A program made the translations under genes and the position numbers. DNA of 64,000 bases from assembly GCA_028718605.1 (NCBI GenBank), contig JAQULM010000002.1, positions 321,776 through 385,775 on the forward strand, in the 5' to 3' direction. The notes under the pieces were generated by a model. It was not told where the DNA came from. It did no database searches and worked only from the letters and a program-made list of their open reading frames with translations. Below are positions 5,007-52,182 of the stretch, piece after piece. This DNA comes from Patescibacteria group bacterium. Its GTDB lineage: Bacteria > Patescibacteriota > Patescibacteriia > UBA10025 > JAHIVO01. Positions within the stretch are counted from its first letter, which is position 1, and every line of letters begins with the position of its first letter.

Positions 5007-5876
5007 CTACCCCTGCTGATTCGGCGGTGGTTGCTGCTTTGTGCGGTTGAACTCGTCCGCGATGTTATTATACAGCTGGACAATCAGGTTCTCTTCCGGA
5101 TTCCTGGACGGTTTGAGGCGGTGCTCGTGGTCACCATGTGAATAACGCTGGGCTGCGTGAACGAATACTCGATACGGTTTCACAACACGCCGAGTAAACA
5201 AATACGCAAGCACACCAAATATCGGTACGAATGCAAGATTGATAATCCACAGTATTTTCAAAAACTGTTGCCGCTCGGCTGAAAGCGTTTTGGCGGCGTA
5301 ATCAACGCCGACAACTGCGACCGTCTTTCCGCGGGCATCCTCAAGCGGCGCGTATCCGGAAATCCATGCGCCCCATTTGTCGTACGTCACCTCAGCATCG
5401 TATGACGGTTTCGTCAGCGCTTCTTCAAGCGCAGGATACTCTTCGGTCTCGTATAATTCTCCGAGGTCTGCTTTCATTTCTTCCGGATCAATAACACCGT
5501 TCTTATCGGCATCAATGTCAGGTTTACCGCTCACGACAAACATCATTGTATGCGGCTTGTTAGTAGGCCGGAGCGTATAGATATCATCGATTTTCGGATT
5601 ACCAGCCATGACCGATTGTAAATACAGTTCGATAATTGCGTACCGCTCGGTGTTTTGGTCTTCGGGCGATTGCAGCAGTTCATGCGTCTCCGCCGGAATC
5701 ATGTTCGCGGTCTTGACGGCGATGTCACGAAGTTCGCGTTGCGTATCGCCTAAAATTTGCGTTGAATGAACCCAATACAGCATACTTGAAATGGCAACTG
5801 TAATAACGATGCTAATAAGCCACAGCGGCCAAAAAATATGGCGCTGATATGGATTGAATTGTACCAATTCCGGCAT
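5007..5876 (-). CDS. Two-TM membrane protein with a large extracytoplasmic domain carrying a canonical EF-hand Ca-binding loop (DADKNGVIDPEE). It looks like a sensor, but there is no output domain.
   Basis: TM helices at the N-terminus (WPLWLISIVITVAISSMLYW) and near the C-terminus (ILWIINLAFVPIFGVLAYLF). The EF-hand loop positions 1, 3, 5, 6, 8, 9 and 12 are all canonical. Confidence 0.45.
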   Translation of the reverse strand: MPELVQFNPYQRHIFWPLWLISIVITVAISSMLYWVHSTQILGDTQRELRDIAVKTANMIPAETHELLQSPEDQNTERYAIIELYLQSVMAGNPKIDDIYTLRPTNKPHTMMFVVSGKPDIDADKNGVIDPEEMKADLGELYETEEYPALEEALTKPSYDAEVTYDKWGAWISGYAPLEDARGKTVAVVGVDYAAKTLSAERQQFLKILWIINLAFVPIFGVLAYLFTRRVVKPYRVFVHAAQRYSHGDHEHRLKPSRNPEENLIVQLYNNIADEFNRTKQQPPPNQQG

Positions 5877-5960
5877 AATGTAAAAAAATATTATTTCAAG
5901 AGCCGCATATCCCCGGCCAAATGCGGCGCTTCTTCAATTATACTAAAAACTTCGTAATAT

Positions 5961-5969
5961 TGCTATAAT
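5961..5969 (+). promoter_or_regulatory. Extended -10 element TGCTATAAT, about 80 nt upstream of the 6049 CDS.
   Basis: TGnTATAAT match in an AT-rich intergenic region. Confidence 0.3.
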
Positions 5970-6048
5970 ACATCAACATCAATACCCAATTCGAACAAAC
6001 GCAATGCTATGCCAATAACTCGTAAAAAACAATAGGCGCATTCTGTGT

Positions 6049-14362: not shown

Positions 14363-15241
14363 ATGACAAAAATTACCAAGGTTGTAATCCCAGCGGCGGG
14401 CTTCGGTACGCGCTTTTTGCCAGTCACAAAAGCGCAACCGAAGGAAATGCTGCCCATTGTAGACAAGCCAGTCATCCAGTACGTGGTTGAAGAGGCAGTC
14501 GCTTCGGGGATCAAGGATATTATCATCGTCACGAGCTGGCAGAAACGCTCGCTCGAGGACCATTTCGATTATTGCCCCGAGCTCGAAAAACAGCTCAAGG
14601 AAGGCGGAAAATACGATAAGCTCAAAGAGGTCCGCCAGATCGCGGAAATGGCTAATTTTATTTATGTACGGCAAAAAGGCCCGTACGGCAATGCGACGCC
14701 CGTCATTGCAGCACATCACGTGATCGGAGATGAACCATTTGCGGTCCTGTGGGGCGACGAATTCATCTACAGCAAGTCTCCCCGCCTCAAACAGCTCCTT
14801 GAAGTCTACGAAACATACGGCCACTCAGTCATCAGCGCGGTGAAAGTTCCGCGGGAAGACGTTTCACGGTACGGCATCGCGAAACTACGCCATAAAAAAA
14901 AGAATATCCACCAAATTCTCGATATTGTTGAAAAGCCGAGCGTCGCTGACGCGCCATCTGATTTGGCGACCCATGGTGGTTACGTTTTCACCCCGAGTAT
15001 TGTCCCCTATCTGAAAAAACTCAAGCCGGGCAAGGGCGGTGAGCTCTGGCTCGTCGATGCGATCCGGGAGCTTATCAAGAAAGAGCCAGTATACGCGTGC
15101 GAAATCAAGAATTGCACATACTACGACACGGGAAATAAACTTGAGTATCTCAAAGCAAATATTGATTTTGCGCTCCAGCGGGCTGATCTCCGCGACCCGC
15201 TGCTTTCGTACCTGAAGCACTGCGTCAAGACAATCAAATAA
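14363..15241 (+). CDS. galU: UTP--glucose-1-phosphate uridylyltransferase.
   Basis: VIPAAGFGTRFLPVTKAQPKEMLPIVDKP... is the canonical GalU N-terminus. Confidence 0.85.
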   Translation: MTKITKVVIPAAGFGTRFLPVTKAQPKEMLPIVDKPVIQYVVEEAVASGIKDIIIVTSWQKRSLEDHFDYCPELEKQLKEGGKYDKLKEVRQIAEMANFIYVRQKGPYGNATPVIAAHHVIGDEPFAVLWGDEFIYSKSPRLKQLLEVYETYGHSVISAVKVPREDVSRYGIAKLRHKKKNIHQILDIVEKPSVADAPSDLATHGGYVFTPSIVPYLKKLKPGKGGELWLVDAIRELIKKEPVYACEIKNCTYYDTGNKLEYLKANIDFALQRADLRDPLLSYLKHCVKTIK

Positions 15242-15244: not shown

Positions 15245-16627
15245 ATGAAGATGCGGCTATCCCACGCTCCCTACGGGCTGTCAAAACTTCTAATCATCGC
15301 GCTGTTTGGCGTCATCGCGCTTATACTCGGCGGCGTTGTGTATACCCTTTTCACGCCGAAGAAAGCATCCCCGCCCGCTGGTGTCACGCTGACAGTCTGG
15401 GGCGTCTGGGACGAATCAACCGACGTCAGCAGCTTATTCAGCTCATACAGCAAAGCACACCCGTACGTAAAGCTCGTCTATACAAAAATTCGGAGCGAAG
15501 AGTACGAGGACAAGCTCCTGAAAGCGTGGGCGACCGACTCGGGCCCTGATATGTACGCGCTGCCCAACTCCTGGATTCACAAATACTCTGAAGATTTTAT
15601 ATCGCCCATGGCAAAAAAGGCTACGGTAGCATATTACGAAACGAAAAAAACTCTCTTTAAAACCGAAACACAATATATCTACCGCACCGAACCCGGCCTT
15701 GCCGCGGATGTGCTCAAGCGAACATACATATCCAACGTCTACGATGACGTCGTCATCAACAACCAGATATACGCGCTTCCGTTTGGAATCAATACGCTCG
15801 TCATGTACTACAACCGGGAACTCCTGAACCAGGCGTTGCTTGCCGAACCTCCGGCATCATGGGAAGAATTCAAGCAAGCAGTGATGAAACTTGCCGTCGT
15901 CGACGACGAACAAAACGTACTTCGTGCCGGCACTGCACTCGGCACGTATGACAATATCCCCCATGCGACTGATCTCGTCACGCTCCTTATGATGCAATTT
16001 GGTACGCAGATGACGACAGGCGGCAAGGTGAGCTTCCAACTTTCTGTCGGCGGAGATGATGTCGCCATCAAGGCGCTCGACTATTACACCGCATACTCTT
16101 CGCCAGAACGTGAAGCGTACACGTGGAATACCCAAATGCCCAACGCCGTTGACTATTTCTGCGATAACCAGCTTGGCTTCATGTTCGGCTACCGATATGA
16201 ACAAACAGCGATCACGAATGCGTGCAAGGGTGTCGATTTCGGCATTGCGGCAGTACCCCAGGTAGACCCGAATTACTCGGTAAATTATGCAAACTACTGG
16301 GCCTACACTGTCTCAAAGAAATCAAAAAATGCTGCCCTGGCGTGGAACTTTCTGCAGTACGTATCAAACTCAAAGCGCGTTGCCAAATATCTAGACGCAA
16401 CAAAGCAAGCGAGTGTTTTAAAATCAGTGCTGGACGAACAGCTGAAGAATCCTGAAACCGCATATCTCGCACAGCAAGCGCTCACGGCAAAGAGCTGGTA
16501 CCGCGGCCGGGATCCGCGCGGCGCCGACGATGCCTTCCAGGCGATGATAGAAGCGATTGTTGAAAATAACCAAACAATTGGCGCTGAACTCCGTAGTGCA
16601 GCTTCAAAAATCCAAAGTACCTATTAA
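15245..16627 (+). CDS. Extracellular solute-binding protein (ABC sugar-binding, family 1-like) with an N-terminal TM/signal anchor.
   Basis: N-terminal hydrophobic helix. The overall SBP_bac_1-like pattern is LTVWGVWDE ... YALPF. Confidence 0.55.
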   Translation: MKMRLSHAPYGLSKLLIIALFGVIALILGGVVYTLFTPKKASPPAGVTLTVWGVWDESTDVSSLFSSYSKAHPYVKLVYTKIRSEEYEDKLLKAWATDSGPDMYALPNSWIHKYSEDFISPMAKKATVAYYETKKTLFKTETQYIYRTEPGLAADVLKRTYISNVYDDVVINNQIYALPFGINTLVMYYNRELLNQALLAEPPASWEEFKQAVMKLAVVDDEQNVLRAGTALGTYDNIPHATDLVTLLMMQFGTQMTTGGKVSFQLSVGGDDVAIKALDYYTAYSSPEREAYTWNTQMPNAVDYFCDNQLGFMFGYRYEQTAITNACKGVDFGIAAVPQVDPNYSVNYANYWAYTVSKKSKNAALAWNFLQYVSNSKRVAKYLDATKQASVLKSVLDEQLKNPETAYLAQQALTAKSWYRGRDPRGADDAFQAMIEAIVENNQTIGAELRSAASKIQSTY

Positions 16628-16631
16628 CAGT

Positions 16632-18314
16632 ATGCGCATAACTCGAAACACCATACTCCAACCAATACTGCTCGCACTCTGCGTGGTCTGTATTGCTTCC
16701 GCCATCCCGTCAGCTGCAAACGCCGCTCAGGCAACCTACCCCGAAGGGTTCAAGATAATCCCTGATTGCGCGCTCGACAAGGGCAACTGCGACCTGGATG
16801 ATTTTGTCCAGCTCTTCGTGAACCTCGCCGGCGTCGCCCTCCGCATCCTGCCGTACCTCGCCATGATCATGATGATCTGGGCTGGTTTCAACCTCATTAT
16901 GGCAGGCGGCAATCCCCAAAAAATCCAGGAAGGCAAGAAGATGATATCATCAATCGTCGTGGGCATGATTATTGTCATCGTCCTTGCGTGGTGCTTCGCG
17001 CATTTCGTCGTTTTTATACTGACCGGCAGCTTCAATATCTTTCCCGGATACGGGAATCCGCTTGAGCGCGAATGGTGGGGCGGCGGCACAACAGGCCAGG
17101 TAGACCCCGAGAAAGGCTGCTGCGTTATCAAGGAAGGCGGGTGCGTGGAGGAAACGCGGGAACAATGCGAATGCCGGCAGAATCCTCTCGTATACATCTG
17201 CCCGGATGGCACCCCCGGTCTGGAACAAGAAACGAATTTCATGGGTGAGGGCGAATACTGCTACTCATTTGAAGCTGCGTGCACGAAATTTAAATACGGT
17301 TGCTGCATACCGAAAGTGCCCAATGCCGCTGATCCCGGATCCGACACGTGTTACGTGCCGGACGATGACGGATGCCTCAAATTTCCGGGCACGACGCACA
17401 ACAGCAACATCTGCGCGGCGCTGACTGACATCTGCGACCCGAGCCTGATCCAGGGCACTCAGGACATTTCACCGGATGCCACCGGATGCTGCGTGAAAGA
17501 TAGTTCATGCGCGGAAACAACCTTCACTGGCTGCACCGGCACATTTAACTACGGAGTCAGCTGCAATAACATCGAGGAATGCAAGCAAGGCTGCTGTGTC
17601 GCCCCGGACGGCTGCATATCCGGAAAAATCGATTGCGCCTACTTCTGGAATGCCTCAAAATGCACTGAACCGCCGAACATCGGCGGTGCGGACAATTGCC
17701 GAGTCGGGTGCTGTATTACCAACAATTCTACAGAATTCAACCAATGCGAAAATAACCAGACAGCCCTCAATTGCAGCCTGGAAGGTGACTCTCAGTTCTT
17801 CTCGGCTACTGATTGCTCAACCATTTCCGTATGCGCGAACGGCTGCTGTCTCCAGTCGTGCACGTCAGGAAGCATTGACGGTTCCTGCGGCGCGTATACT
17901 ACATACCGAAAAAGCACCACCTGCGCCGCCTCACCGGATTGCGTTTTTGGCTGCTGCCTCAAATCAGGCGCTACGCGGTGTGTTGGGAATGTGCTCCAGG
18001 GCAACTGCGTTGCGCCGGACACGTGGATCGGTGCTGGTGCCTGTGACCCTGCCGTGTGTGCAACTGGCTGCTGTGAACTAACTGCTGAAAACTACCGGTG
18101 CGTGGACGAGACTTCAACATATTGGTGCCTTGCACAGCCGGGACATATTTTCTATCTCGGTGACGCCTGCTCAGAGGTCAATAACTGTACCGCAGGTGGG
18201 TATTGTATTTACGGCGGTACGTGCTATCCTTGGGGGTCCCCCCATACGCAGGCTGAGTGCGTAACGGGCCATGGCGGGGTATTTTACCCAGCGCCCGCAA
18301 CGTGCCCCTCATAA
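16632..18314 (+). CDS. T4SS-pilin-like (TrbC/VirB2-like) membrane domain fused to an approx 400-aa cysteine-rich extracellular repeat domain (8 GCC-initiated repeats). The start is at the first ATG after the upstream stop.
   Basis: Residues approx 60-135 (LAGVALRILPYLAMIMMIWAGFNLIMAGGNPQKIQEGKKMISSIVVGMIIVIVLAW) are paralogous to the two downstream small pilin-like proteins. Downstream, GCC recurs 8 times with about 6 Cys per repeat. Confidence 0.6.
   Translation: MRITRNTILQPILLALCVVCIASAIPSAANAAQATYPEGFKIIPDCALDKGNCDLDDFVQLFVNLAGVALRILPYLAMIMMIWAGFNLIMAGGNPQKIQEGKKMISSIVVGMIIVIVLAWCFAHFVVFILTGSFNIFPGYGNPLEREWWGGGTTGQVDPEKGCCVIKEGGCVEETREQCECRQNPLVYICPDGTPGLEQETNFMGEGEYCYSFEAACTKFKYGCCIPKVPNAADPGSDTCYVPDDDGCLKFPGTTHNSNICAALTDICDPSLIQGTQDISPDATGCCVKDSSCAETTFTGCTGTFNYGVSCNNIEECKQGCCVAPDGCISGKIDCAYFWNASKCTEPPNIGGADNCRVGCCITNNSTEFNQCENNQTALNCSLEGDSQFFSATDCSTISVCANGCCLQSCTSGSIDGSCGAYTTYRKSTTCAASPDCVFGCCLKSGATRCVGNVLQGNCVAPDTWIGAGACDPAVCATGCCELTAENYRCVDETSTYWCLAQPGHIFYLGDACSEVNNCTAGGYCIYGGTCYPWGSPHTQAECVTGHGGVFYPAPATCPS
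17115..18311 (+). repeat. Coding repeat array. Eight cysteine-rich modules each begin with Gly-Cys-Cys (ggctgctg / ggttgctg / gggtgctg at 17115, 17299, approx 17487, 17590, 17709, 17842, 17949, 18066).
   Basis: Direct reading of the recurrent GCC motif in the translation and of the ggYtgctg motif in the DNA. Confidence 0.55.
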
Positions 18315-18347: not shown

Positions 18348-18746
18348 ATGTCAAAAACATTCTTGCTCGGCACTATACTCACGGCCACGGCGGTTATCGC
18401 GCTGACTGCTGTGCTTCCTACCCCATCGACACTTGCCGCCGAAACGGCTGACGCACCGGTGACGCTGCCAAATCCGCTCGGGAAGAAGACTGGCACCGAC
18501 GAGCCGATTAGCATGGTTGATGTCTTGCTTCGCGTCATGCAAATTGCGCTTATGGCTGTGGATGTATTCGCCCTCTTTATGTTCATCCTCGGCGGATTCG
18601 AGATGCTGATTTCGGCTGGTAACCCGAATATGATTAAAAAGGCAAAAGACACGCTCATCTGGGCTACGCTTGGGATACTCGTGATTACATTCAGCTATTC
18701 GATACTCAAATTCGTATTTGAAGAAGTACGCAAGGGTTTCGCATAA
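18348..18746 (+). CDS. T4SS-pilin-like (TrbC/VirB2-like) small membrane protein: signal peptide plus two TM helices.
   Basis: VFALFMFILGGFEMLISAGNPNMIKKAKDTLIWATLGILVI matches the paralog core GGFxxMxAGGNxxKxxxAKKxI. Confidence 0.6.
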   Translation: MSKTFLLGTILTATAVIALTAVLPTPSTLAAETADAPVTLPNPLGKKTGTDEPISMVDVLLRVMQIALMAVDVFALFMFILGGFEMLISAGNPNMIKKAKDTLIWATLGILVITFSYSILKFVFEEVRKGFA

Positions 18747-18934: not shown

Positions 18935-19291
18935 ATGAAAAAAATTACAGTCGGCTTACTCACTGCAGCAGCGGTTTTGCTGCCAGTCGTCGCTTCAGCA
19001 CAGGTGAACATCAACAAGGTAAACGGTTCGACCTTCAACCTTGGCACCGCGGACCTCGAGTCAGCGGTCGTGAACATTGTGCAGTGGGTGTTAGGTTTCT
19101 TGGGATTGGTCGCAGTTATCATGATCCTGATCGGCGGTTTCCAGTGGATGACAGCAGGTGGAAACGAAGAAAAAGTTGCATCAGCAAAGAAAATTATTTC
19201 TGCAGCAGTTATCGGTTTAATCGTTATATTGCTCGCATGGGCAATTGTCATCTTTGTCGTTTCGCAGACACAGGACTGGACTGGCGTCTAG
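18935..19291 (+). CDS. T4SS-pilin-like (TrbC/VirB2-like) small membrane protein, probably the highly expressed paralog.
   Basis: Signal peptide MKKITVGLLTAAAVLLPVVASA plus the core LGFLGLVAVIMILIGGFQWMTAGGNEEKVASAKKIISAAVIGLIVILLAW. It has tandem consensus promoters and a strong terminator. Confidence 0.65.
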   Translation: MKKITVGLLTAAAVLLPVVASAQVNINKVNGSTFNLGTADLESAVVNIVQWVLGFLGLVAVIMILIGGFQWMTAGGNEEKVASAKKIISAAVIGLIVILLAWAIVIFVVSQTQDWTGV

Positions 19292-19311
19292 TGAATGTTT
19301 GATTCTAACTG

Positions 19312-19350
19312 CCCCCCACACCATTTTTTATGGTGTGGGGGGTTTGTTTT
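19312..19350 (+). terminator. Strong rho-independent terminator. The 12-bp stem is ccccccacacca / tggtgtgggggg, with loop tttttta and trailing TTTGTTTT.
   Basis: Perfect 12-bp inverted repeat plus a T-tract directly after the pilin-like gene. Confidence 0.8.
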
Positions 19351-19378
19351 ATCGAGAAACCTACGATACAATACATGC

Positions 19379-21382
19379 ATGGAAATTGCGAAAAAAATCA
19401 CCCTCATGACGCGGCGATACAGCACCCTGCTGCTCTGGATATGTATCGCGATATTCATAAGCGCGCTCTTTATCGTTGTCGCGTGCAAGTACGCTGCGTT
19501 TGGCTACGACGCGATCGATCTCGGGATATACAGCCAGGTTTTTTTCAATTCCAGCCATGGTGCGCTGTTCGAATTCTCAGTACACCCGCATTCCTACCTC
19601 GGTGACCACGTCGAGCTTTTTATTTTATTGCTCCTGCCGTTCTACGCACTCCTCAAATCCCCGCTCACGCTCCTCGCACTGCAGATAATTGCCGTCGCCA
19701 TTGCTGCCGTGCCGCTCTACTCCATAGCCCGCAGGCTGCTCCCCGAGCATTGGTCGCTCGCGATCGTGCTCGCGTACTTATGCAACCCGTTTGTATTGAA
19801 CATGGCGTTTTTTGAATTTCACTTGCTCCCGTTCGCCATCCCCTTGCTCATGGCAGCGTTTTACTTCTACCGCGAGAAGCGGCTGGCATGGTTTCTTGTT
19901 TTTTCAGTCCTCGCGCTCTCGGTACGGGAAGACGTCCCGCTCGTTATCGGCATGTTCGGCGTGCTCGCTGCCATTGACCGCCGGCGACTCCGGTGGATAC
20001 TGCCGCCAATAATTATTAGCGGCGTGTGGTTCATAGCTGCATTTAAGTTAACCGGCTACTTCAGCGGTTATGACACCTATAAATTTCTCGCTTTTTATTC
20101 TTGGCTCGGATCAACCCCAGGGGAAATCGTACACAATGCGCTATTCAAACCATGGCTTGTTCTCCGGCAGATTATGAGCGCGAACAATCTGCTGCTGGTA
20201 ATCGGTTTGCTCCTCCCACTCGGAGCATTGCCGCTGCTGAAAACACGATACCTTATTCCGGCCGCGCTCATCACGGCCCAGCTTTTCCTCGCGACCGTGA
20301 GCAGCACGATTGTACTTCAAACACACTATCCATCGCTCATTATTCCGTTCCTCTTTATCGCGTGTGTCTTTTCGCTCGCAACAGTGCTCTCAGCGACGCC
20401 ACGCGCAACACGCCTCGCGCAGTTTGCGCGCCGCAACCGGCTGATCGTGCTCGCAGTTTTCGGTATGGCGGTCGTGTATAGTTTTCTGACATTTAGCCCT
20501 GCCGTAAGCAGCGCGAAATTCGTAGCAACAGGACAGCACCGCAATGAAAGCACTACCGTGAAGCGAAACGCCATTGCGCCGATTCAGGAGGGTGACGCGG
20601 TGGTCGCGAGCTACGAATTTTTGCCAGCATTAGCCCAAAGAAAACATTTATACCCTCTGCATTATTTATTTCTTGGAGTTCAGCAGTATTCTGATAAGCC
20701 GTATATCGTGACTGAACCGATCGACACGGCCGTGGTCAATTTCCAAGACTTCGTAACGTACTACATCCAAACAGGCAACATTAGCTCATACCGCGACCAC
20801 TACCGGTCCGGCGCGGGAAGAATTCTCTCGCTGATTAACGAAAATCGGCTCGGCCTGGCCTCTCTGACCGATTCAATCGCGCGGTACGACCGAAACGCGC
20901 AGCCAGTCGCCAAACTCGTTGACCTGCCGAATGCAGTCAGCGCAAGTGCGACTGCCGTTGAAACCACGGGCAACCAGCTTCTTCGCATTACCGCATGGGA
21001 TCGAATCGCTGCGCTCCCGGACCATGAAGCCCTTGCGGTCCTTCCCCTTGCGCTGTACTGGGAAAAAAGCGGCAATCTCGCCGAGGACTATGCCATGGAA
21101 GTCGTGTTCCGTACCGCAAACGGTAAAGCAGCCAGCACAGAATACTACCCCATTGGGTACGGCATATTCCCCCCCTCTGTATGGATCGTCGATACTACCG
21201 TCCAAACCAACCACTGGTTCCTCATACCACGGGAGTGCAAAAAAAGCTCGTGCAATGCCGAGCTTACGGTCGTCTCTCTCCGCGGCTATTACGGCCTGGA
21301 TGGAATCCGCTCAACCAAACTCGAAATCACCCAGCGGCAGTCAATCGGGCCTACGGTAACTATTCCCGCACCCGATAGATAG
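19379..21382 (+). CDS. Polytopic membrane protein, GT-C / DUF2079-like putative glycosyltransferase, with an approx 300-aa C-terminal extracytoplasmic domain. The start is moved to an internal ATG, because the upstream part of the ORF is the terminator.
   Basis: N-terminal motif GYDAIDLGIYSQVFFNSSHG is typical of DUF2079. There are more than 10 TM helices. Confidence 0.5.
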   Translation: MEIAKKITLMTRRYSTLLLWICIAIFISALFIVVACKYAAFGYDAIDLGIYSQVFFNSSHGALFEFSVHPHSYLGDHVELFILLLLPFYALLKSPLTLLALQIIAVAIAAVPLYSIARRLLPEHWSLAIVLAYLCNPFVLNMAFFEFHLLPFAIPLLMAAFYFYREKRLAWFLVFSVLALSVREDVPLVIGMFGVLAAIDRRRLRWILPPIIISGVWFIAAFKLTGYFSGYDTYKFLAFYSWLGSTPGEIVHNALFKPWLVLRQIMSANNLLLVIGLLLPLGALPLLKTRYLIPAALITAQLFLATVSSTIVLQTHYPSLIIPFLFIACVFSLATVLSATPRATRLAQFARRNRLIVLAVFGMAVVYSFLTFSPAVSSAKFVATGQHRNESTTVKRNAIAPIQEGDAVVASYEFLPALAQRKHLYPLHYLFLGVQQYSDKPYIVTEPIDTAVVNFQDFVTYYIQTGNISSYRDHYRSGAGRILSLINENRLGLASLTDSIARYDRNAQPVAKLVDLPNAVSASATAVETTGNQLLRITAWDRIAALPDHEALAVLPLALYWEKSGNLAEDYAMEVVFRTANGKAASTEYYPIGYGIFPPSVWIVDTTVQTNHWFLIPRECKKSSCNAELTVVSLRGYYGLDGIRSTKLEITQRQSIGPTVTIPAPDR

Positions 21383-22994
21383 AAACATCCCTATTACGGA
21401 ATATCGCCTCGAGGTACGCTTTCGTGTCCGGATCATATGATCCGGATTCTTTTTCTTTCTGCCCGTAAAAAACGTACGCAATATTCTGCTCATTGAGGAA
21501 TTGTTTCTTGCCAGTGCTATCGGTATCGTCCTGCCAGAACCACTCACTGGCTGTAAATTTTTCCTGCAGATTAATAGTTTGCGGGCCGTGGCCGACCCAG
21601 ACCACCCTGCCGCTGTACGCCGGAATGAAGTTGCCCATGTAGTAGCTCGAAAAAATGACCTCACGTTCACCAACATGGTCACGGAGCCAGTGCATCGCCT
21701 CAACCTCCTGCTCGGTTAAATAGTACGGCAGTGCTTTTTTTGTTTGGTAGAGGTGGATGTCCTGGCCAACAATCTGCGCATTCGTAAGCGGCAGAAAAAC
21801 GAAAAGCACAATCAGTACAATGACCGGCGCCATGCTGTCCGAACCACGCTTCCTGCTGATCACGCTCACAACGCTCGCAACGCCAATAAATGCAAGGATT
21901 GACAGCGGAATATGGAATCCCTCAATCATGCGCCGCTGGAATGCGACGGGAAAATATACAAGCGCCATTGTCGCCGCGATCCAGGACAGAACGAATATAT
22001 GCCGCGATGTGGGTTTGCCCCGCAGTTTCCATGCGCCGACCGCAGCCAACGGCAGCAGGAGACCGAAGCCAATCAGGTACATCCATATGCTCGGCGAGTT
22101 GAGGATGTTTTGGGCAGACCAATTGCGGATTACCCAGTCAGCGCGGCTGATAAGGTAGAGGTAGAGAACTGGTGGAACCGTAAAGAGCGCGAGCACAACC
22201 CCATGCTTCAGGTATTGCCAAAGTACCGTACGGCTCCGGATGCATTGAACACAGATAAAAATGGCCAGCGTCAAGGCAATCGTCGGCGCATTAAACGGGT
22301 GAAACCAGGTCAGAAACAAATTCGCAATACCGGCAGCAACGCTGTATGATACGCGGTTCGTATCAAACGCCAAGAGCATCAGGAGAAAAACAAGCACAAT
22401 GAGTGTCAGGGACGCGATAATATGCGGTGTATGGTAGAGCGTCAGGAACGTGATGCTCTCTGGCACCCAAATATCCGTCGGGTGCTCCTCGATATTATTG
22501 GGGTCAAAAAGGAACGGATTGAAAAACACGCCGAGGCCCGAGGAAAAAACAATCAGGATGAGGACCCACACCCGCCAGCGCTGGTGCCGAATCACGTACG
22601 CGATAAACAAATAGACCACAAAAATAAATACAGCAATGAGTATCGAACGGGCGATATGGAGCGCCAGCAAGTTTGGCATGTCGAATGCTTTCGCAAATAA
22701 CCCAACAGAGAGCCATAAGGGATTAATGAAAATCCGCGATTGCGCTTCACCTGTGTACAAATTGAGAAATACCGCGTGCCCCTGTTTTACCTGCTCAATC
22801 ATGGACAGAAAAACATTCGTGTCCCCCGGCGTCAGGTGATGCAAACCGGTGTATACCATGCCGGTAGGCCTCGTGAAGTAACCATACAGATACGGCGCTG
22901 CAGTTATGACAATGGTTGCGCAGGCAATAACGGCGATGAAAATCCATTCACGCTTTGAAATTGATTGAATTAATTGTTTTAGTCCGTGTCCCAT
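21360..22994 (-). CDS. GT-C fold membrane glycosyltransferase (PMT/ArnT/GT39-like). Its 3' end overlaps the convergent upstream gene by 23 nt.
   Basis: More than 11 TM helices, then a C-terminal soluble domain, as in polyprenyl-phosphate-sugar dependent transferases. Confidence 0.5.
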   Translation of the reverse strand: MGHGLKQLIQSISKREWIFIAVIACATIVITAAPYLYGYFTRPTGMVYTGLHHLTPGDTNVFLSMIEQVKQGHAVFLNLYTGEAQSRIFINPLWLSVGLFAKAFDMPNLLALHIARSILIAVFIFVVYLFIAYVIRHQRWRVWVLILIVFSSGLGVFFNPFLFDPNNIEEHPTDIWVPESITFLTLYHTPHIIASLTLIVLVFLLMLLAFDTNRVSYSVAAGIANLFLTWFHPFNAPTIALTLAIFICVQCIRSRTVLWQYLKHGVVLALFTVPPVLYLYLISRADWVIRNWSAQNILNSPSIWMYLIGFGLLLPLAAVGAWKLRGKPTSRHIFVLSWIAATMALVYFPVAFQRRMIEGFHIPLSILAFIGVASVVSVISRKRGSDSMAPVIVLIVLFVFLPLTNAQIVGQDIHLYQTKKALPYYLTEQEVEAMHWLRDHVGEREVIFSSYYMGNFIPAYSGRVVWVGHGPQTINLQEKFTASEWFWQDDTDSTGKKQFLNEQNIAYVFYGQKEKESGSYDPDTKAYLEAIFRNRDVSIYRVRE

Positions 22995-23002
22995 ATGCGT
23001 TA

Positions 23003-23986
23003 TTATGGCATGTTCACGGTTTTCTCATGGACCTCTCCGGAATCGGAATCTGGCTCCCGAGAGATCGCCTGCCGCGATAAATAGTAATTAAACACAATGC
23101 CGAGTGCGAAAATCCATATCATTGAAATGCCCCGGTCGAGTACTGCAGCGGTTACGCTGTCAGAGACGTTTACCGCAAACCATGCAGCAAATGCGCCGAC
23201 GAGCGCTTCGCGTATAACAAGCCCGCCAGGGGTTATTGAAGTGAATGTTGCCAGAAGCGTAATAGGCCCCACTAAGATATAGAAAAATATTGAAATATCA
23301 TATCCAAGCGCATTGCTCGCGATAGAAAGCCGAAGCGCCGCGAGAAAGATAATAACAACATTTAAAAACGCTGACTGCCAGATCACGCTTCGGTGCTGCA
23401 TGAGAATACGAACTCCCTGGAAAAAACGCTCTGCGAAACTCCAGCGGATTCCCAGACGGCGTGCGGCCACCAAAGCGGCGAAGACCAAAAATGAGAGGAC
23501 GACAACCCCACCATATATGGCAACGGGGAGCCAAGAAATGGTAAAACCATTCCACAAGGCTGCCACCAGTCCAGCAAGACCGACAATGCCGACCACGAAA
23601 AAAGTAATGAGGTAACTTGCGGTCAACATTGAAAGATACTCTGTATATGAAAATTGATATCGGCGTTTAAGGTAGAGCCCTTTTGCAACCAGGCCTCCCT
23701 GAAAAGGTAAGTAATTCCAAAACGAATTCACGACGGAAACGCCGAACCATTCGGAGGTTTTCAGGCGAATATTGAACGGTCTCAAGAGAACCGTATTCTG
23801 GATACCATTAGCGAAAAACACCGCTATTGAAATGGCGGACATGGCCGCCGCGTCAAACCATCCAATATTTAAAATGCTCCCAAAGTCAAATTGTTCCCGC
23901 TGGACAAAAAACCATACAAAAATGCAAGAAATGATCAGAATGACATATGAGATCACTTTCTTGTACGAACCCGATGCAACAGCCAT
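23003..23986 (-). CDS. Lysylphosphatidylglycerol-synthase-TM-region / flippase-like (UPF0104) membrane protein.
   Basis: 8-TM protein with the LPG_synthase_TM-like pattern (GIQNTVLLRPFNIRLKTSEWFGVSVVNSFWNYLPFQGG). Confidence 0.5.
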   Translation of the reverse strand: MAVASGSYKKVISYVILIISCIFVWFFVQREQFDFGSILNIGWFDAAAMSAISIAVFFANGIQNTVLLRPFNIRLKTSEWFGVSVVNSFWNYLPFQGGLVAKGLYLKRRYQFSYTEYLSMLTASYLITFFVVGIVGLAGLVAALWNGFTISWLPVAIYGGVVVLSFLVFAALVAARRLGIRWSFAERFFQGVRILMQHRSVIWQSAFLNVVIIFLAALRLSIASNALGYDISIFFYILVGPITLLATFTSITPGGLVIREALVGAFAAWFAVNVSDSVTAAVLDRGISMIWIFALGIVFNYYLSRQAISREPDSDSGEVHEKTVNMP

Positions 23987-24021
23987 ATTCCTTGAAACAT
24001 TACCCCTCTCGCAAATTAGAA

Positions 24022-24741
24022 TTATTTCTGCTTATGAACTCTGCAAACGAGCACAAGGAAACTCGCAAAGTACACCAGAGGGGTCCTCGCGAGAAAGCGC
24101 TCAAGCCAGCAGAGCACAGAGCGAAGAATGGGTATGCGGTAGAGATGCCCCGTCGGCGAGATTATCCTGATGCCAGTGACTTTCTCGACAGTACACATGG
24201 GCGGTAAGTACTTCTTCGCCCCCCAATAGCTGTCAAAACGCGTATATACATCTTCCGCGCTTAAAAAACTAATGAGCCGCCGGATACTCCATGCATTATA
24301 AAACTCCAGGATCAAATGCCCGCCATTCTGAGTAATGCGGGTTGCTTCCTGGATGAGCGGACCGATGCGTTCAACGTGGCCGAGGACCTTGAATGAATAC
24401 ACAACATCAAATGCGTTATCGGAGAATGGCAACAGTTGATTCGCATCCGCCTCCCGTACGTCCAATCCTTTCCGTCGAGCTTCGTTGAGCATGGTGCGCG
24501 AATTATCAATGCCAATGAGCGATTGTGTGGAGTCGCGAAGGCGTTCCATAACCATCCCCGTGCCACATCCCACTTCAAGGGCCTTCTTCCCGTGTATATA
24601 TGGCTCAACGATGCTGACCGCCGAATCATACAATAGCTTATAGTAATGCGGATACTTTATTATTCGATCCGTATCGTAACTGCCCCCTGTTGTATTGTAA
24701 TATCCTTGTGTATTTGACATATGCTTATCATCACTATACAC
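24022..24741 (-). CDS. Class I SAM-dependent methyltransferase. GTG start at 24741 as in the ORF track, alternatively the ATG at 24720.
   Basis: Motif I LEVGCGTGMV, acidic IGIDNS, and motif II/III. Confidence 0.7.
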   Translation of the reverse strand: MYSDDKHMSNTQGYYNTTGGSYDTDRIIKYPHYYKLLYDSAVSIVEPYIHGKKALEVGCGTGMVMERLRDSTQSLIGIDNSRTMLNEARRKGLDVREADANQLLPFSDNAFDVVYSFKVLGHVERIGPLIQEATRITQNGGHLILEFYNAWSIRRLISFLSAEDVYTRFDSYWGAKKYLPPMCTVEKVTGIRIISPTGHLYRIPILRSVLCWLERFLARTPLVYFASFLVLVCRVHKQK

Positions 24742-26923
24742 GTACCTGCTCCTTCAGTACACGGGTACTGCCCCGAAGCGTTCGGGGATTGATGACTATG
24801 CCACCGAATGAAGAGAGCAACTGTCGGACAAGTTGTTCCTGGCGCTGTTTTAATAAAGGGATTGCCCGGTTATCGACGTACGGTAATAGAGTTGAGCATA
24901 AAATATCATGGTACTCAATTGTTCGACATACGAGAGCAACGCATTGGCCAAGTGTACGTGTATCTATCTTTATAAAATCCGCGCCGATTTCCGATGATAA
25001 AACCACGATGTTGTTAACGTTCCCGGTAGGGATTCGTTGGGCTGCCGGCATGAGCCGGTCAATGGGAATGCGCGTACTGAGATACAGGCGCTGGCGCATG
25101 ACCGCCCCTGCAAACCAGCGTATAAAACTTTTGCATATGAGCACCATTCGAATCCCGGCGGAAAGCGAAAGTGAAGGCACGGCACGTGTTGTACCGCTGA
25201 AAATATGCACAAATCGCGGGGATAAAGACAACACAGCGCCTGCCGGCTCGACCAAAAGAGCATCGTCCGCTACGAACTGCCAGCCGTGCGCAACCAGATT
25301 GAGTGCGGTGCTCGTCTTGCCGCCCCGTGAGCTGGCAATAAAAACGGATACTTTTCTATCGTGGGCTACTGCTGCTGCATGGAGCAGCAGCGAACCTCGC
25401 TGAAGGGCAGTATAATAGATAAATGGCATGAGCACCATTGAATAAGCCCCAAGAGCTACGATATGGCGTACAAGCCGATATGCGGGGTGCACCGAACATC
25501 GAATCTCAAAACAGTTCTCTCGGGTCGAGCGTACCGCAATCGTTGCGCGGAACGCTTTACTTTTAACTTGAAATGTCTTGCCGACAAGAGGCAGTGAATA
25601 ACCTATATGAAAATCAATGTCAGGTATCGTGGGCGAATCAGCACATTCAAGATTTGAAAACTCTTTGCGAAAAAAATCAAGAATGAAAGTATTTTGAGCG
25701 GTTACCGCAACGATTCCTGCGCTTTTCAAATCGAAGCGGGTGGTTTTCGTTATCGCCAGGGAAGGCTCCCGATATACGCTATATGTTCGTTGTGCAATAT
25801 TCTGCCACATGCATTCCTGCTGAACCACGGACCGTCCGTGCCGGCCAAACTGCCCGCGGAGCGAGGGATCAGCGATCAGCTTTACAATGGAATCAGCAAT
25901 CGCTTCCGGCGTGCCAGGAGGCACGACAAAGCCCGCCGTACCGTCCTGAATAATGTCCGAAACGCCCCCAACATTCGTCGCAACGACCGGCCTGCCAGCA
26001 GCAAGCGCTTCAATGATAACCAATGGAAAACCTTCTCGATTTGATGTCAGCATCAAGAGTGCATGGCGGGCAAACTGCCGAGGAACATCCCGCTTGTCAA
26101 CCGCACCAGTAAACGCCACTGATTTTTGTATTCCGAGTTTCCGGCATAGCGCCTCGCATGGGGCGCGTTCCGGGCCGTCACCGATCATGGTCAGCCGGGC
26201 ATCCGGGGCGTGAATAAGCACCGCCTGGAATGCTTGAATTGCCAAGCGTGGATTTTTTTCCTCGGTAAAGCGGCCAATCCATACTACGCTATGATTGGCT
26301 GCATCCGCAAAGGGTATGCGAAGTAGCTCCTCAGCATTTGAAACGCCATTCGGGATTACGGCAACCCGCCGCGGGTTAACGCCAAGGCCGAGAATTATAT
26401 CACGCTGTTGTTTCGCCACCGTGATAACACCGTCAGCCCTCCGGAGTACGTAGCGGGAAATGCTCCGAAATAAACGGTTACGCGTGCTCAAATACGCATC
26501 CGAGCCGTGTACCGTTACGACGAGCCGCGCACGGGTGAACCGCCGAACTACTACGCCAATAATGCCCGCGCCAACCCAGTGCGCGTGGATAATATCAGCC
26601 CCCCGGGACGCCCGGACGCTGTTTACCAAAAAACTGACAAGAAAAAATGGCAGGCCAAGCAATGAAATAACGTTATGGCGTATATTGCTGACAACGCCAC
26701 CCCCATACCCCACGCGCTCATATGAAGAGGGCCACATATACCGAAAACGGCGAATGGCAATCCGCTCGCGAGCCTCCCGTTTTTTTAATCCCTGCCCATG
26801 GGGCGCAACGACTACTACCTCAACGCCACGCTGTGCTAATGAACGGGCAAGCTCAAAAACAAAAATACCCGCATAGTCACCTCGATGACGGGGAAACGAC
26901 GTTGTGAGCATGCATACCCGCAT
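24734..26923 (-). CDS. Fusion protein. N-terminal GT4 (GT-B) glycosyltransferase, approx 370 aa, plus a C-terminal HprK-C-like P-loop serine-kinase domain, approx 260 aa.
   Basis: GT4 part: EGFPLVIIEALAAGRPVVATNVGG. HprK-like part: GSLLLHAAAVAHDRKVSVFIASSRGGKTSTALNLVAHGWQFVADD, against the HprK pattern hGvlv.v.g.GvLitG.SGvGKSE.ALeLi.rGHrLvADD. The two parts share a single uninterrupted frame. Confidence 0.6.
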   Translation of the reverse strand: MRVCMLTTSFPRHRGDYAGIFVFELARSLAQRGVEVVVVAPHGQGLKKREARERIAIRRFRYMWPSSYERVGYGGGVVSNIRHNVISLLGLPFFLVSFLVNSVRASRGADIIHAHWVGAGIIGVVVRRFTRARLVVTVHGSDAYLSTRNRLFRSISRYVLRRADGVITVAKQQRDIILGLGVNPRRVAVIPNGVSNAEELLRIPFADAANHSVVWIGRFTEEKNPRLAIQAFQAVLIHAPDARLTMIGDGPERAPCEALCRKLGIQKSVAFTGAVDKRDVPRQFARHALLMLTSNREGFPLVIIEALAAGRPVVATNVGGVSDIIQDGTAGFVVPPGTPEAIADSIVKLIADPSLRGQFGRHGRSVVQQECMWQNIAQRTYSVYREPSLAITKTTRFDLKSAGIVAVTAQNTFILDFFRKEFSNLECADSPTIPDIDFHIGYSLPLVGKTFQVKSKAFRATIAVRSTRENCFEIRCSVHPAYRLVRHIVALGAYSMVLMPFIYYTALQRGSLLLHAAAVAHDRKVSVFIASSRGGKTSTALNLVAHGWQFVADDALLVEPAGAVLSLSPRFVHIFSGTTRAVPSLSLSAGIRMVLICKSFIRWFAGAVMRQRLYLSTRIPIDRLMPAAQRIPTGNVNNIVVLSSEIGADFIKIDTRTLGQCVALVCRTIEYHDILCSTLLPYVDNRAIPLLKQRQEQLVRQLLSSFGGIVINPRTLRGSTRVLKEQVRV

Positions 26924-26925
26924 GG

Positions 26926-27876
26926 TTACTGCTGTAAATCTTTATTCGTATCCATGTCAAACCACATCGCAAAAAACAGCGATTGCGTGCCAAAGAGAAA
27001 GAATATTGCTGCGAATAACGCGCTTGTGCCGGATACCGGCCCGCTGAAAATCCGGTACCCCAGCAGGTACAGGCCAAAAGTTAAACCAATGAGAAGCGAT
27101 GCGCCCCCAAAAAAATAGAAAAACACGAGTGGATGGAAATCGCGAATGATATATTTTTCTTTCAGGCGCCAGAAAAAATTCTTCATAAGGAGCCACGAAA
27201 TCTTCGGAATGACCGATCCAAGCCGGATCCCGGACCGCTCCCCCGCATAGATTGGGCGTATCGGCACTTCGCATACGCGCGCCCGTACGACATTGAGCTT
27301 AACAAGGATGTCATTAGGAAATCCGTACCGCGGATAGAGCCCGTCGAGGGGAAGCCGCTGAAGCATTGCCAGTGAAATCGCAGTATACCCAGTCTGGAAA
27401 TCAGAAAGTTTCCAATATCCCGAGGCGATTTTGGTTAGCAATGACAATATTGCGTTCCCGATAAAACGGTATTTCGGCATAACTTGCCACGAATTCCCAT
27501 ACGCAAACCTGTTCCCTTTCACATAATCCGCCGTTCCCCGCACGACAGGTAAAACAATCTGTTCAAGCTCTCCCGGATCCATCTGCCCGTCGCCCGCCAT
27601 CACCGCACAAACATCAATCTTGTCCTTACAAGCCCGCCGGTAACCGCTGGTGATCGCCGCTCCCACTCCCCGATTCCGGTCATGCTGTATGAGCGCGACG
27701 GTCGTCGACGGTGTGCCACGAAATGTCCGGACGATTGTGCACGTCGAATCCGTGCTCGCATCATCAATAACGTACACTGCGTCAACAAATGCCGGCATCG
27801 TTTCCAGGACGCGGCGAATGCGCTCCGCTTCATTGCGGGCAGGAACAACAACACAAATTTTCTTTCCGGACAGCAT
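26926..27876 (-). CDS. GT2 polyprenyl-phosphate sugar synthase (Dpm1/GtrB-like) with C-terminal TM helices.
   Basis: KKICVVVPARNEAERI ... VYVIDDASTDST, then DGQMD, then C-terminal hydrophobic helices. Confidence 0.75.
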   Translation of the reverse strand: MLSGKKICVVVPARNEAERIRRVLETMPAFVDAVYVIDDASTDSTCTIVRTFRGTPSTTVALIQHDRNRGVGAAITSGYRRACKDKIDVCAVMAGDGQMDPGELEQIVLPVVRGTADYVKGNRFAYGNSWQVMPKYRFIGNAILSLLTKIASGYWKLSDFQTGYTAISLAMLQRLPLDGLYPRYGFPNDILVKLNVVRARVCEVPIRPIYAGERSGIRLGSVIPKISWLLMKNFFWRLKEKYIIRDFHPLVFFYFFGGASLLIGLTFGLYLLGYRIFSGPVSGTSALFAAIFFLFGTQSLFFAMWFDMDTNKDLQQ

Positions 27877-27879
27877 AGA

Positions 27880-29322
27880 TTATTTCTGAAGATTGAACCG
27901 TCGTAAAACAATGCGGCTTACAGTTTCCCATTGTACCATAAGGGCGAATATAACTAAAGAAAGGCAAAACAGCACACTCGGCAAAAACACCTGGAGCATG
28001 CCGTAGTACAGAAAGCCATACACCGTAATAATCAGGATGATACCGTGGTACCATCGGTCACGGGTAATGAGTACAAGCGGCGCGCACCAGAGGATATACC
28101 AAATATTAAATTTTCCGCCAAGCAGAAGAACCAATAAAAGCAACATCCAGAAATACCGCTTAATATCAGACGAGCCATCTCCCCGCTTCCCCATGAAAAG
28201 CAATAAAGAATATGGGACTAGAAAAGCAACAATGTAACCCGCCCGGACTGCGGTCAAATTGTAGGGAATCAATGGAATAAGTTTATGAAAGCCCTCAAGG
28301 GCGACCTGGATGAACGCTTGGGGTAACGTGAGATAATTATCCTTTACAAACGCACGGCCAAGATTTCCGATGCTCGAAGAAAAGCTTCCATAGGGGAGAT
28401 ATGCAATCGCGATGAGGGCCGCCCCGACGAGAGCGCCTATCGCACAATCACGCCATGCCTTTTTTCGATCCTGGGTGAATATCAATAAAACAACAACAGG
28501 CAAGAGTACGATCGCGCTGTATTTTATCAGGAAGGCACACGTGAGCGCCACGATAGACCAACGATATTTTTTAGTCACGATGAAATACACGGATGCCAAA
28601 ATAAACAGCACCATATACATATCATTATGTGCAGAATGAACCGCTTCAATAAGGATATACGGATTCCAGAGGAAGAGCGCAGTGCCTATAAAGCGGAACT
28701 TCGGGGCACTCTGTTGCAAAATTTTATACATCAGGTAACCGCACGCGGCGAAAACAGCCGCTGCAGCAAGCCGAAAAACCACCAAGTTCGCCACAATATC
28801 AGAACCGGCAATTTTATTGAAAAGCAGCCCAATGGAAATAAACAGCGGCCCGTAAACGGACTCCTTGTCCGGCCATGCCACAAAATCGCTGTATCCGAGC
28901 GACGCGGGCGTTATGGTATACGGATTGGCATGGTGGATGTTTGCTATTGCAGACCGGGTAATGTAACCGAATAAATCGGAGGAAAAAAACGGCGGGCTTA
29001 AAAAAAGTATCACCACAAACACAACAGGAAAAAGTATGAGGATCCGCTGGTAGCGGGCACTTGCCTCGTGCTGCTTCCGCACCGTGAAAAAAAATACCCC
29101 GTACAGAATGCAGAACGCGAGGAAAAATAAACTGAACACAACCCTGTTCGCGAAAAAAATTCCTGCATGCCGCATAAACGTACCGATGTGCGGAGGCATG
29201 TAGAAAAAGGTAAGGAGGGTGTACGCGAAAAACATAAAGCTAAAAACAACCCCCAGAAGTACGAGCCGGCGCGTTGCAGTGCCCGCCGCGGCGTGTGTCA
29301 ACATGACGCTTTGTTCTTTCAT
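27880..29322 (-). CDS. GT-C fold membrane glycosyltransferase (DUF2029 / GT87 / PIG-M-like mannosyltransferase family).
   Basis: Polytopic. Shared motifs with its neighbour: SDLFGYITRSAIAN-HHANPY and VYGPL. Confidence 0.5.
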   Translation of the reverse strand: MKEQSVMLTHAAAGTATRRLVLLGVVFSFMFFAYTLLTFFYMPPHIGTFMRHAGIFFANRVVFSLFFLAFCILYGVFFFTVRKQHEASARYQRILILFPVVFVVILFLSPPFFSSDLFGYITRSAIANIHHANPYTITPASLGYSDFVAWPDKESVYGPLFISIGLLFNKIAGSDIVANLVVFRLAAAAVFAACGYLMYKILQQSAPKFRFIGTALFLWNPYILIEAVHSAHNDMYMVLFILASVYFIVTKKYRWSIVALTCAFLIKYSAIVLLPVVVLLIFTQDRKKAWRDCAIGALVGAALIAIAYLPYGSFSSSIGNLGRAFVKDNYLTLPQAFIQVALEGFHKLIPLIPYNLTAVRAGYIVAFLVPYSLLLFMGKRGDGSSDIKRYFWMLLLLVLLLGGKFNIWYILWCAPLVLITRDRWYHGIILIITVYGFLYYGMLQVFLPSVLFCLSLVIFALMVQWETVSRIVLRRFNLQK

Positions 29323-51912: not shown

Positions 51913-52182
51913 AAAAGTATAGATAAATAATTTAAAGAATAATAATTATAGTAATAGGAGCTGTGGGAAAGTGGAAAAGAATTATTGGTGGGTTTTTGGG
52001 AGCGAAGGTTAGCGCGCGAAGAAAGAAAAAGGATTTTATTGGGTGTGAACGACAACCGCACAAAAGGGGTATAGCGTGCCGACAGAGCGGGGATAATTAT
52101 TCAGGAGGAAGTGGGCGCGGGGGAAATGGTTTGATAAAAGGGGATAATCATGTGAGTTGTACGCTTGCCATCCACCACTTAT
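51913..52182. other. Candidate replication origin segment (dnaA-dnaN intergenic). It has an 85% AT stretch at 51913-51958 (DUE-like) and two GGGGATAAT near-DnaA-box motifs (52088, 52140).
   Basis: Synteny plus direct reading of the AT-rich block and repeated motifs. Boxes are only approximate matches to TTATCCACA. Confidence 0.35.

Follow-up and report, generated by a model that had tools for sequence, protein, structure and literature searches.

A VirB2-like pilin of Patescibacteria carrying a lineage-variable array of cysteine-rich modules outside Pfam-A and NCBIfam

VirB2-like pilins and their tandem arrays are already known in bacteria of the candidate phyla radiation (CPR). A survey of type IV secretion systems (T4SS) in these organisms found arrays of 2-11 divergent VirB2 genes to be common and VirB2-like genes to lie near virB4 in 1,135 of 1,948 assemblies, about 40% of these genes lying away from it in genomes that possess virB4; one VirB2-like array is reported, in work which the survey cites, to be essential for the epibiotic lifestyle (bioRxiv 10.1101/2025.01.22.634366). 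A cysteine-rich repeat tail finds no mention in this survey. In the current analysis we have considered a stretch of 64,000 nucleotides, referred to here as the window, from the genome of a Patescibacteria group bacterium (assembly GCA_028718605.1, contig JAQULM010000002.1, positions 321,776 to 385,775). A gene on its forward strand encodes a VirB2-like pilin that bears a family of cysteine-rich repeats outside Pfam-A and NCBIfam. This Sec-exported protein is conserved in related organisms and carries nine modules of the unlisted family in an array, the number of modules varying with the lineage. The gene and the features of the N-terminal part of its product are the following.

16632..18314, + strand: cysteine-rich VirB2-like gene, 560 residues; uninterrupted translation, stop codon at 18312-18314
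16632..16724, + strand: predicted Sec signal peptide, residues 1-31 (...SAANA/AQ); hydrophobic residues 3-32, helix 6-31 in the AlphaFold2 (AF2) model
16821..17006, + strand: PF18895 T4SS_pilin domain, residues 64-125; Pfam E-value 1.3e-6, score 28.8 bits (cut-off 26.6)
17067..17087, + strand: juxtamembrane motif R-E-W-W-G-G-G, residues 146-152, between the second transmembrane helix and module 1

The ATG at 16632 lies 75 nucleotides within a longer open reading frame (ORF) that starts with TTG (16557..18314). The PF18895 region is comprised of two transmembrane helices linked by a lysine-rich (KxxxxKK) loop, GGNPQKIQEGKKM. Hydropathy marks three stretches in the N-terminal part (residues 3-32, 58-91 and 100-137), the last two corresponding to AF2 helices at 55-90 and 95-131, and the cleavage site of the signal peptide has been placed at the A-x-A motif. 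The match exceeds the gathering score of Pfam, as do those of both small genes which follow downstream. The orthologues likewise carry a precomputed PF18895 annotation, and the N-terminal domain is paralogous to the products of these two small genes, with 43% identity over 77 residues (E-value 3e-16) to that of the third gene of the set. None of 16 orthologues departs from W148, W149, G150 and G151 of the juxtamembrane motif. The positive-inside rule and analogy with the VirB2 family would place the lysine-rich loop in the cytoplasm, and with the loop so placed the C-terminus would emerge outside the membrane and hence outside the cell.

A preliminary description of this DNA, made from the letters alone, had proposed a pilin-like membrane anchor. 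A two-helix membrane domain followed by the tail is indeed present, of the VirB2/TrbC-like type (PF18895) and not of the type IV pilin type. A type IV pilin or a pseudopilin of type II secretion has been considered and rejected, as the N-terminus (MRITRNTILQPILLALCVVCIASAIPSAANAAQ) lacks a G-F/M-x-x-x-E motif and two more helices come after it. The Pfam scan of the protein gave no pilin, N_methyl or other type IV pilin match. Lacking a class III signal peptide, the protein does not belong to the type IV pilins.

The protein contains 59 cysteines in 560 residues (10.5%), of which 54 are found in the tail of 399 residues (162-560; nucleotides 17115-18311), where they make up 13.5% of the sequence. 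The tripeptide Gly-Cys-Cys (GCC) occurs eight times in the tail, at residues 162, 223, 285, 320, 359, 404, 440 and 479, the codons beginning at nucleotides 17115, 17298, 17484, 17589, 17706, 17841, 17949 and 18066. Shuffling of the tail residues gives a mean of 0.79 such tripeptides, and none of 20000 shuffles reached the observed eight. An identical entry at NCBI is titled 'MAG: pilin [Patescibacteria group bacterium]'. Among 19 further homologues every named one belongs to Patescibacteria or Kerfeldbacteria, and 16 full-length orthologues (alignment A1) share 35-48% identity with the window protein, the mean column identity being 40%. Almost all the cysteines of the tail and the glycine ahead of each Cys-Cys pair are invariant in these 16 sequences, while the other positions vary freely. 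The modules into which the tail is divided are listed below.

17115..17297, + strand: module 1, residues 162-222, begins GCCVIKEGGC, 8 cysteines; kept even in short-tailed orthologues
17298..17483, + strand: module 2, residues 223-284, begins GCCIPKVP, 6 cysteines; from translation and the 16-orthologue alignment
17484..17588, + strand: module 3, residues 285-319, begins GCCVKDSSC, 6 cysteines; from translation, alignment and hhalign
17589..17705, + strand: module 4, residues 320-358, begins GCCVAPDGC, 6 cysteines, 'GKI.C' subtype; from translation, alignment and hhalign
17706..17840, + strand: module 5, residues 359-403, begins GCCITNNS, 6 cysteines; from translation, alignment and hhalign
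17841..17948, + strand: module 6, residues 404-439, begins GCCLQSC, 6 cysteines; from translation, alignment and hhalign
17949..18065, + strand: module 7, residues 440-478, begins GCCLKSG, 6 cysteines; from translation, alignment and hhalign
18066..18197, + strand: module 8, residues 479-522, begins GCCELTA, 6 cysteines; from alignment and hhalign, and modelled alone
18198..18311, + strand: module 9, degenerate, residues 523-560, begins GYCIYGG, 4 cysteines; from alignment, hhalign against module 8 at 94%

The modules of the 16 orthologues (126 in all) follow the pattern x-G-C1C2-x(2-15)-C3-x(4-11)-C4-x(6-21)-C5-x(2-12)-C6, and the next G-C-C begins 2-3 residues further on. The segments between successive GCC tripeptides in the window protein contain 8, 6, 6, 6, 6, 6, 6 and 10 cysteines, the last segment (82 residues) being made up of modules 8 and 9. 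Module 9 aligns with full GCC modules in four orthologues (P0009, P0013, P0014 and P0016). Comparison of the orthologous module columns by hhalign relates modules 3, 5, 7, 8 and 9 to one another (highest probabilities 92-96%) and pairs module 4 with module 6 (92%); in this profile-profile comparison modules 1 and 2 stand further off from the others. No tandem repeat has been found in the tail at the DNA level, so the module repeats are old and diverged.

The GCC positions, the ten-residue strings and the C-terminal repeat tail of about 400 residues given in the preliminary description are all present in the translation. The eight GCC motifs stand; the modules number nine and not eight, a degenerate G-Y-C module being present at the C-terminus. 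Its estimate of about six cysteines per module and roughly 50 in total agrees with six in most modules, eight in the first, four in the ninth and 54 altogether, and the module length of 35-60 residues is extended slightly, to 35-62. The DNA motif GGYTGCTG, described as recurring at intervals of 110-185 nucleotides, is found at six of the eight sites and is missing from two, the GCC codons being spaced 105-186 nucleotides apart.

All the segments between GCC tripeptides in the 16 orthologues have an even number of cysteines (6, 8 or 10). Losses of cysteines are paired: C2 together with C4 in module 7 of P0009, C1 together with C5 in module 4 of P0018 and in module 7 of P0006, and the first cysteine of module 9 along with the final one in five sequences, the window protein among them. 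The even parity and the paired losses are a signature of disulfides formed within the modules. Taken tentatively, the most parsimonious pairing from these few events would be C1-C5, C2-C4 and C3-C6. Degenerate modules of the distant repeat proteins described below offer few clean cases, and these suggest pairings inconsistent with the co-losses in the orthologues.

The full-length AF2 model, built from 16 sequences, has a mean pLDDT (predicted local distance difference test score) of 73.5, with values of roughly 80-87 over most blocks of the tail and a few lower stretches. Module 8 modelled alone (residues 478-521, with an alignment of 105 modules) reaches a pLDDT of 89.8. It is predicted to form a hairpin of two strands, then a short helix and a third strand, with another short helix at the C-terminus.

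The module is not restricted to the orthologous group. A search of 1.84 billion cluster representatives with the tail profile (hmmsearch) gave only 57 proteins at E-values of 1e-3 or below. They are of three kinds: the orthologous group with shorter proteins having PF18895 and modules; small proteins, for example P0052 and P0039, in which a signal peptide is followed by 6-11 GCC modules and a C-terminal IPTL-CTERM-like anchor; and giant secreted proteins (P0028, P0030, P0031, P0034, P0035, P0066, P0025) whose 'G-[AS]-C-C' modules number 13-40. Further GCC-repeat proteins, sought at the suggestion of the preliminary description in other CPR genomes, have thus been found there, and the module also occurs outside CPR, in other bacteria and in Mastigamoeba. 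Ten further module-bearing proteins scanned against Pfam at E-values up to 0.01 gave only PF18895, LamG and a sub-threshold IPTL-CTERM, and no Pfam or NCBIfam model was found for the repeat in any of the three kinds of protein.

The giant proteins share the CC-C-C-C-C order and the consensus C.D..T...C...GG.F.....C with the pilin tail. Six of them (P0025, P0028, P0031, P0034, P0035 and P0066) match the tail profile at E-values of 1e-8 to 1e-20 over 5-11 stretches each, and the repeat of P0031 scores 31 bits with the profile made from CPR modules only. They differ in being 770-2100 residues long, in having an ordinary signal peptide but lacking the pilin domain, LamG being present in some; in having mostly G-A-C-C in place of G-C-C, with modules that usually end in C-P; and in their source organisms, which are bacteria with large genomes and one eukaryote. 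The eukaryotic member, P0025 (1672 residues), comes from the EukProt collection, is assigned to the amoebozoan Mastigamoeba balamuthi and has 25 copies of the CC-C-C-C-C module; its array could reflect horizontal transfer, contamination or an ancient origin. P0031 is a LamG protein of 1529 residues in which 22 six-cysteine modules have been counted. On the 5.3-Mb bacterial contig that encodes it (L006) a DsbA-family gene (5126-5998) ends 3 nucleotides before the gene of P0031 (6001-10590), which suggests that this repeat family has an oxidase dedicated to it. Since the module follows signal peptides and occurs in anchored as well as in giant secreted proteins, it is an extracytoplasmic building block, one that is rare, widely scattered and outside Pfam-A and NCBIfam.

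Searches for a known domain in the tail gave no match in Pfam-A at E-values up to 1 or in NCBIfam up to 10, PF18895 in the N-terminal part being the only match of the whole protein. The PDB sequences were not matched by the tail itself (phmmer) or, under default filters, by the tail profile (A2) and a broader module profile (A4). Foldseek against the PDB found nothing at E-values of 0.001 or below for the full-length model, an iRhom1 chain being among its nine non-significant matches, and no match for the 44-residue module model. The statement of the preliminary description that the module is not a recognised named domain is in accord with the lack of a Pfam-A or NCBIfam model and with the empty full-length searches of PDB sequences.

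A 42-position profile of the CPR modules (A3) pointed to one family of known structure. Among 177,635 PDB sequences it matched iRhom2 (8SNL_B, 9O58_B) at an E-value of 0.001 and iRhom1 at 0.46, which are borderline values, and beyond iRhom only one marginal and unrelated chain at E 2. The iRhom homology domain (IRHD) of metazoan iRhom1 and iRhom2 (PDB 8SNL, 9O58, 9XY4), in which two separate extracellular stretches are matched in each iRhom, is the sole PDB family matched by the CPR module profile. In exon-sized iRhom fragments of the protein collection the second stretch has the pattern CC-x6-C-x7-C-x13-C-x4-C, its fifth cysteine preceded by G-x-F, in the order of the module, and its start resembles module 1 of the window (CCIGTKGSCEITTREYC versus CCVIKEGGCVEETREQC). 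When the sequences were shuffled with the cysteines fixed, 0-8 of 2000 shuffles reached the real scores for both stretches with the CPR-only and the broad profile (p<=0.004). With the HMMER filters off the two IRHD stretches reach 15-24 bits, and classical cysteine-rich controls stay at 2 bits or less; both iRhom fragments score 16-20 bits with A4, and the empty PDB search with A4 is therefore probably due to the default filters. The cryo-electron microscopy study of iRhom2 describes an IRHD with 8 disulfides for which no similar structure was found (PMC11248996), and the domain had earlier been predicted as two structured halves (PMC8233286). Based on the sequence comparisons, the module may be related to the two IRHD halves, a homology which is suggested here tentatively.

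The genes that accompany the cysteine-rich gene in a conserved cassette are given below.

14363..15241, + strand: NTP_transferase (GalU-like); conserved upstream, with Pfam assignments in related loci and 48-80% identity by tblastn
15245..16627, + strand: membrane-anchored family-1 solute-binding protein (SBP); PF01547, E-value 1.1e-17; 4 nucleotides before the cysteine-rich gene
18348..18746, + strand: second VirB2-like gene 'PilB', 132 residues, no cysteine; PF18895, E-value 1.9e-6; syntenic in all related loci
18935..19291, + strand: third VirB2-like gene 'PilC', 118 residues; PF18895, E-value 1.7e-13; most conserved of the three
19295..21382, + strand: DUF2079 polytopic membrane protein; PF09852, E-value 4e-53; syntenic downstream member

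The order in the window is PGA_cap, GalU-like NTP_transferase, SBP_bac_1, cysteine-rich pilin, pilin, pilin and DUF2079, with glycosyltransferase-type membrane proteins thereafter on the opposite strand. The cassette from GalU through SBP, the cysteine-rich pilin, PilB and PilC to DUF2079 is kept in every Patescibacteria or Kerfeldbacteria locus long enough to show it; four of these loci were reached through the proteins, two through distant short-tailed relatives and the rest as species-representative loci of a genome scan. In most loci the identity to the window is 72-81% for PilC, 40-77% for PilB and 28-46% for the cysteine-rich protein, and PilC may form the structural core of the set. The first pilin gene has a tail of 0, 1, 2, 4, 6 or 7-10 Cys-Cys modules according to the species, and the short-tailed orthologues match the query only to residue ~265, that is, over the N-terminal domain and modules 1-2. 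An orphan SBP gene lies directly upstream of three VirB2-like genes in L001-L005, L007, L008 and L010-L028, down to 28-35% identity, and no ABC permease has been found near the SBP and pilin genes, here or in related loci. Neither a coupling protein nor a relaxase was seen among the ~40 scanned ORFs of the window or in these loci. The title 'uncultured Gammaproteobacteria bacterium' on the records of L010, L012, L020, L022 and L028 looks like a placeholder or a taxonomic mislabelling, as the gene content and synteny of these loci agree with Patescibacteria.

The chromosomal window includes dnaN and dnaA (50809-53547, minus strand) at a turn of the cumulative GC skew that marks the origin, and the pilin cassette lies ~33 kb from dnaA. 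T4SS genes are often found near dnaA in CPR (bioRxiv 10.1101/2025.01.22.634366). The only secretion ATPase among the scanned ORFs of the window is a PilB-type T2SSE protein with an MshEN domain (57341-59200), of the type IV pilus kind and apart from the VirB2-like genes.

On balance, and with moderate confidence, the tail is best understood as a disulfide-stapled surface stalk on a specialised VirB2-like subunit. Such an envelope protein of a Kerfeldbacteria-related bacterium would be exported by Sec, with a signal peptide followed by a VirB2/TrbC-like hairpin of two membrane helices. Nine abutting modules with three intramodule disulfides each, ~27 in all, would produce a stiff beaded stalk. 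The short and highly conserved paralogues would make up the bulk of a membrane or filament assembly, to which the cysteine-rich protein, as a specialised first member, would add a protruding stalk of 0-10 modules according to the lineage; display on the tip or along a filament, as proposed in the preliminary description, is plausible from the VirB2 topology. The stalk would probably contact another cell or a surface polymer. In this proposal we infer the location outside the cell, the disulfide bonding, the rigidity, the assembly with the paralogues and the role in contact or adhesion.

Several observations weigh against it. In the 16 orthologues the conserved signature differs from one module to the next, and such module-specific conservation suggests that the modules have separate roles and are more than a simple spacer. 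The cysteine co-losses are few and not fully consistent on the partner of C1 (C5 versus C6). The predicted template modelling score of the full-length AF2 model is 0.41, at which the arrangement of the modules relative to one another is unreliable. No DsbA-, DsbB- or VKOR-like gene was seen among the ~40 scanned ORFs of the 64-kb window; the preliminary description had proposed to look for oxidoreductases of this kind in the genome. To our knowledge CPR bacteria are usually without quinones and respiratory chains, and with this expected lack the oxidant for ~27 disulfides is left unexplained. The same ~40 ORFs include neither virB4 nor any other T4SS gene, and there is no virB4 or T4SS domain within 6-10 kb in the related loci, so a T4SS-type filament is unproven; as about 40% of the CPR VirB2-like genes of the survey lie away from virB4, its absence nearby is not decisive.

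Among the rival explanations for the tail, that its cysteines bind metal or serve in redox or electron transfer, in the manner of metallothioneins or Fe-S proteins, draws on the very high cysteine density (13.5% of the tail), on the lack of a Dsb-looking gene among the window ORFs scanned and on the habitat of CPR bacteria, which live mostly in anoxic groundwater. It is nevertheless very unlikely, as it has against it the strictly even number of cysteines per module and their paired loss, a fold predicted confidently without metal, the extracytoplasmic topology, the DsbA gene that abuts the homologous repeat protein P0031, and the lack of histidine or CxxC metal-site motifs. It is highly improbable that the module is a diverged form of a described cysteine-rich domain such as EGF, granulin, thionin/crambin, hevein or GCC2_GCC3. 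Thionins have the same CC-C-C-C-C cysteine order; against this stands the absence of any Pfam-A, NCBIfam, PDB sequence or significant Foldseek match for the tail, and EGF, crambin, viscotoxin, purothionin, hevein and granulin, as control sequences entered by hand, score 2 bits or less against the module profiles with the HMMER filters off. A clear homology to a described family such as EGF or granulin, which the preliminary description had named as the finding that would speak against a new module, did not appear in the profile and Foldseek searches. That the region is not translated as read, whether because of a frameshift, because it is a pseudogene or because the ORF arose by chance, has a negligible probability, given the uninterrupted ORF, the cysteine positions invariant through the C-terminus of the orthologues and the preserved synteny. 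As the tail is conserved end to end in the orthologues, a frameshift or chance ORF is excluded; the frameshift envisaged in the preliminary description is absent, the 16 full-length orthologues keeping the frame to the C-terminus.

The chief rival is a different arrangement of the same parts for the locus as a whole. The three VirB2-like proteins and the SBP, taken as co-transcribed with them, could form a membrane complex independent of T4SS, for uptake, sensing or the handling of envelope glycans, in which the hairpin would be a mere anchor and the cysteine-rich stalk would position or shield the complex. The SBP gene only 4 nucleotides upstream and the order SBP, cysteine-rich pilin, PilB, PilC in every related locus speak for it, as do the lack of ABC permease, virB4 or coupling-protein genes nearby and the envelope glycan genes among the neighbours (GalU, PGA_cap, DUF2079, GT87, GT2, GT4). 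PF18895 is, however, homologous to the filament-forming VirB2/TrbC pilins, the absence of virB4 nearby is weak evidence in the light of the CPR survey, and an interaction of the SBP with the pilins has no direct evidence; we regard such a complex as possible, though rather unlikely. A bolder and doubtful proposal takes the SBP, the three VirB2-like proteins and the neighbouring GT-C-type membrane enzymes as an unrecognised, T4SS-independent envelope apparatus of Kerfeldbacteria-like organisms, with the pilin fold re-used to carry an expandable disulfide-stapled stalk to a host or substrate and with the module as a prokaryotic and protist relative of the IRHD halves. The disulfide-stapled stalk on a specialised VirB2-like subunit is retained as the favoured explanation.

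A large envelope glycan cluster, partly syntenic in the related loci, follows the cassette (19295-30782) and consists of DUF2079, two polytopic proteins without a Pfam assignment, an LPG_synthase_TM protein, a methyltransferase, GT4, GT2 and GT87. A large ORF without cysteine (66-2474, at least 802 residues), with FG-GAP repeats and Glucodextran_B and PliI-like domains, probably encodes a further surface protein. The close spacing of two starch/glycogen-synthase-like genes and a GH57 gene (36409-37905, 39146-40525 and 42429-43937) indicates that this small genome provides for storage-glucan metabolism.

VirB2-like arrays are widespread in CPR. The present locus reveals that one member of an array can carry a long extension, predicted to be extracellular, the length of which varies with the lineage; this extension is therefore a concrete candidate for the contact-making part. 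The stalk offers a handle for antibodies, for tagging and for the comparison of module number with host range. A compact six-cysteine repeat that has no Pfam-A or NCBIfam model and ranges from CPR bacteria to an amoeba deserves definition as a family. If the resemblance to iRhom is true, it would give an evolutionary context to the IRHD and a small expressible model module. The ~27 predicted disulfides in organisms where quinones are expected to be absent raise the question of how CPR bacteria oxidise their secreted proteins.

In comparison with classical folds, EGF-like, granulin, thionin/crambin and hevein domains are likewise small extracellular modules of 35-60 residues with 3-6 disulfides, often in tandem. 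They have no profile or sequence similarity to the present module, and its order of elements (hairpin, helix, strand, helix) is unmatched by Foldseek in any PDB entry. The IRHD resembles the module in being extracytoplasmic and disulfide-stapled, as described for the IRHD (PMC11248996) and as predicted for the module; it differs in being a single domain of 243 residues with 16 cysteines and extra elements, located between the first and second transmembrane helices of a rhomboid pseudoprotease and not arranged in a tandem array.

A new CPR pilus system built of Pam pilins (10.64898/2026.03.03.709456) was also considered and is unrelated, as these are Ig-fold donor-strand pilins. Among the closest described systems are the VirB2 arrays of CPR. 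The N-terminal 160 residues of the cysteine-rich protein resemble their members in having a signal peptide and a two-helix hairpin, and, as in these arrays, its gene is the first of three divergent paralogues in tandem. The window array is linked to an SBP gene and glycan genes and not to virB4, and, whereas typical PF18895 members have ~100-140 residues, the cysteine-rich protein adds a repeat tail of 400 residues.

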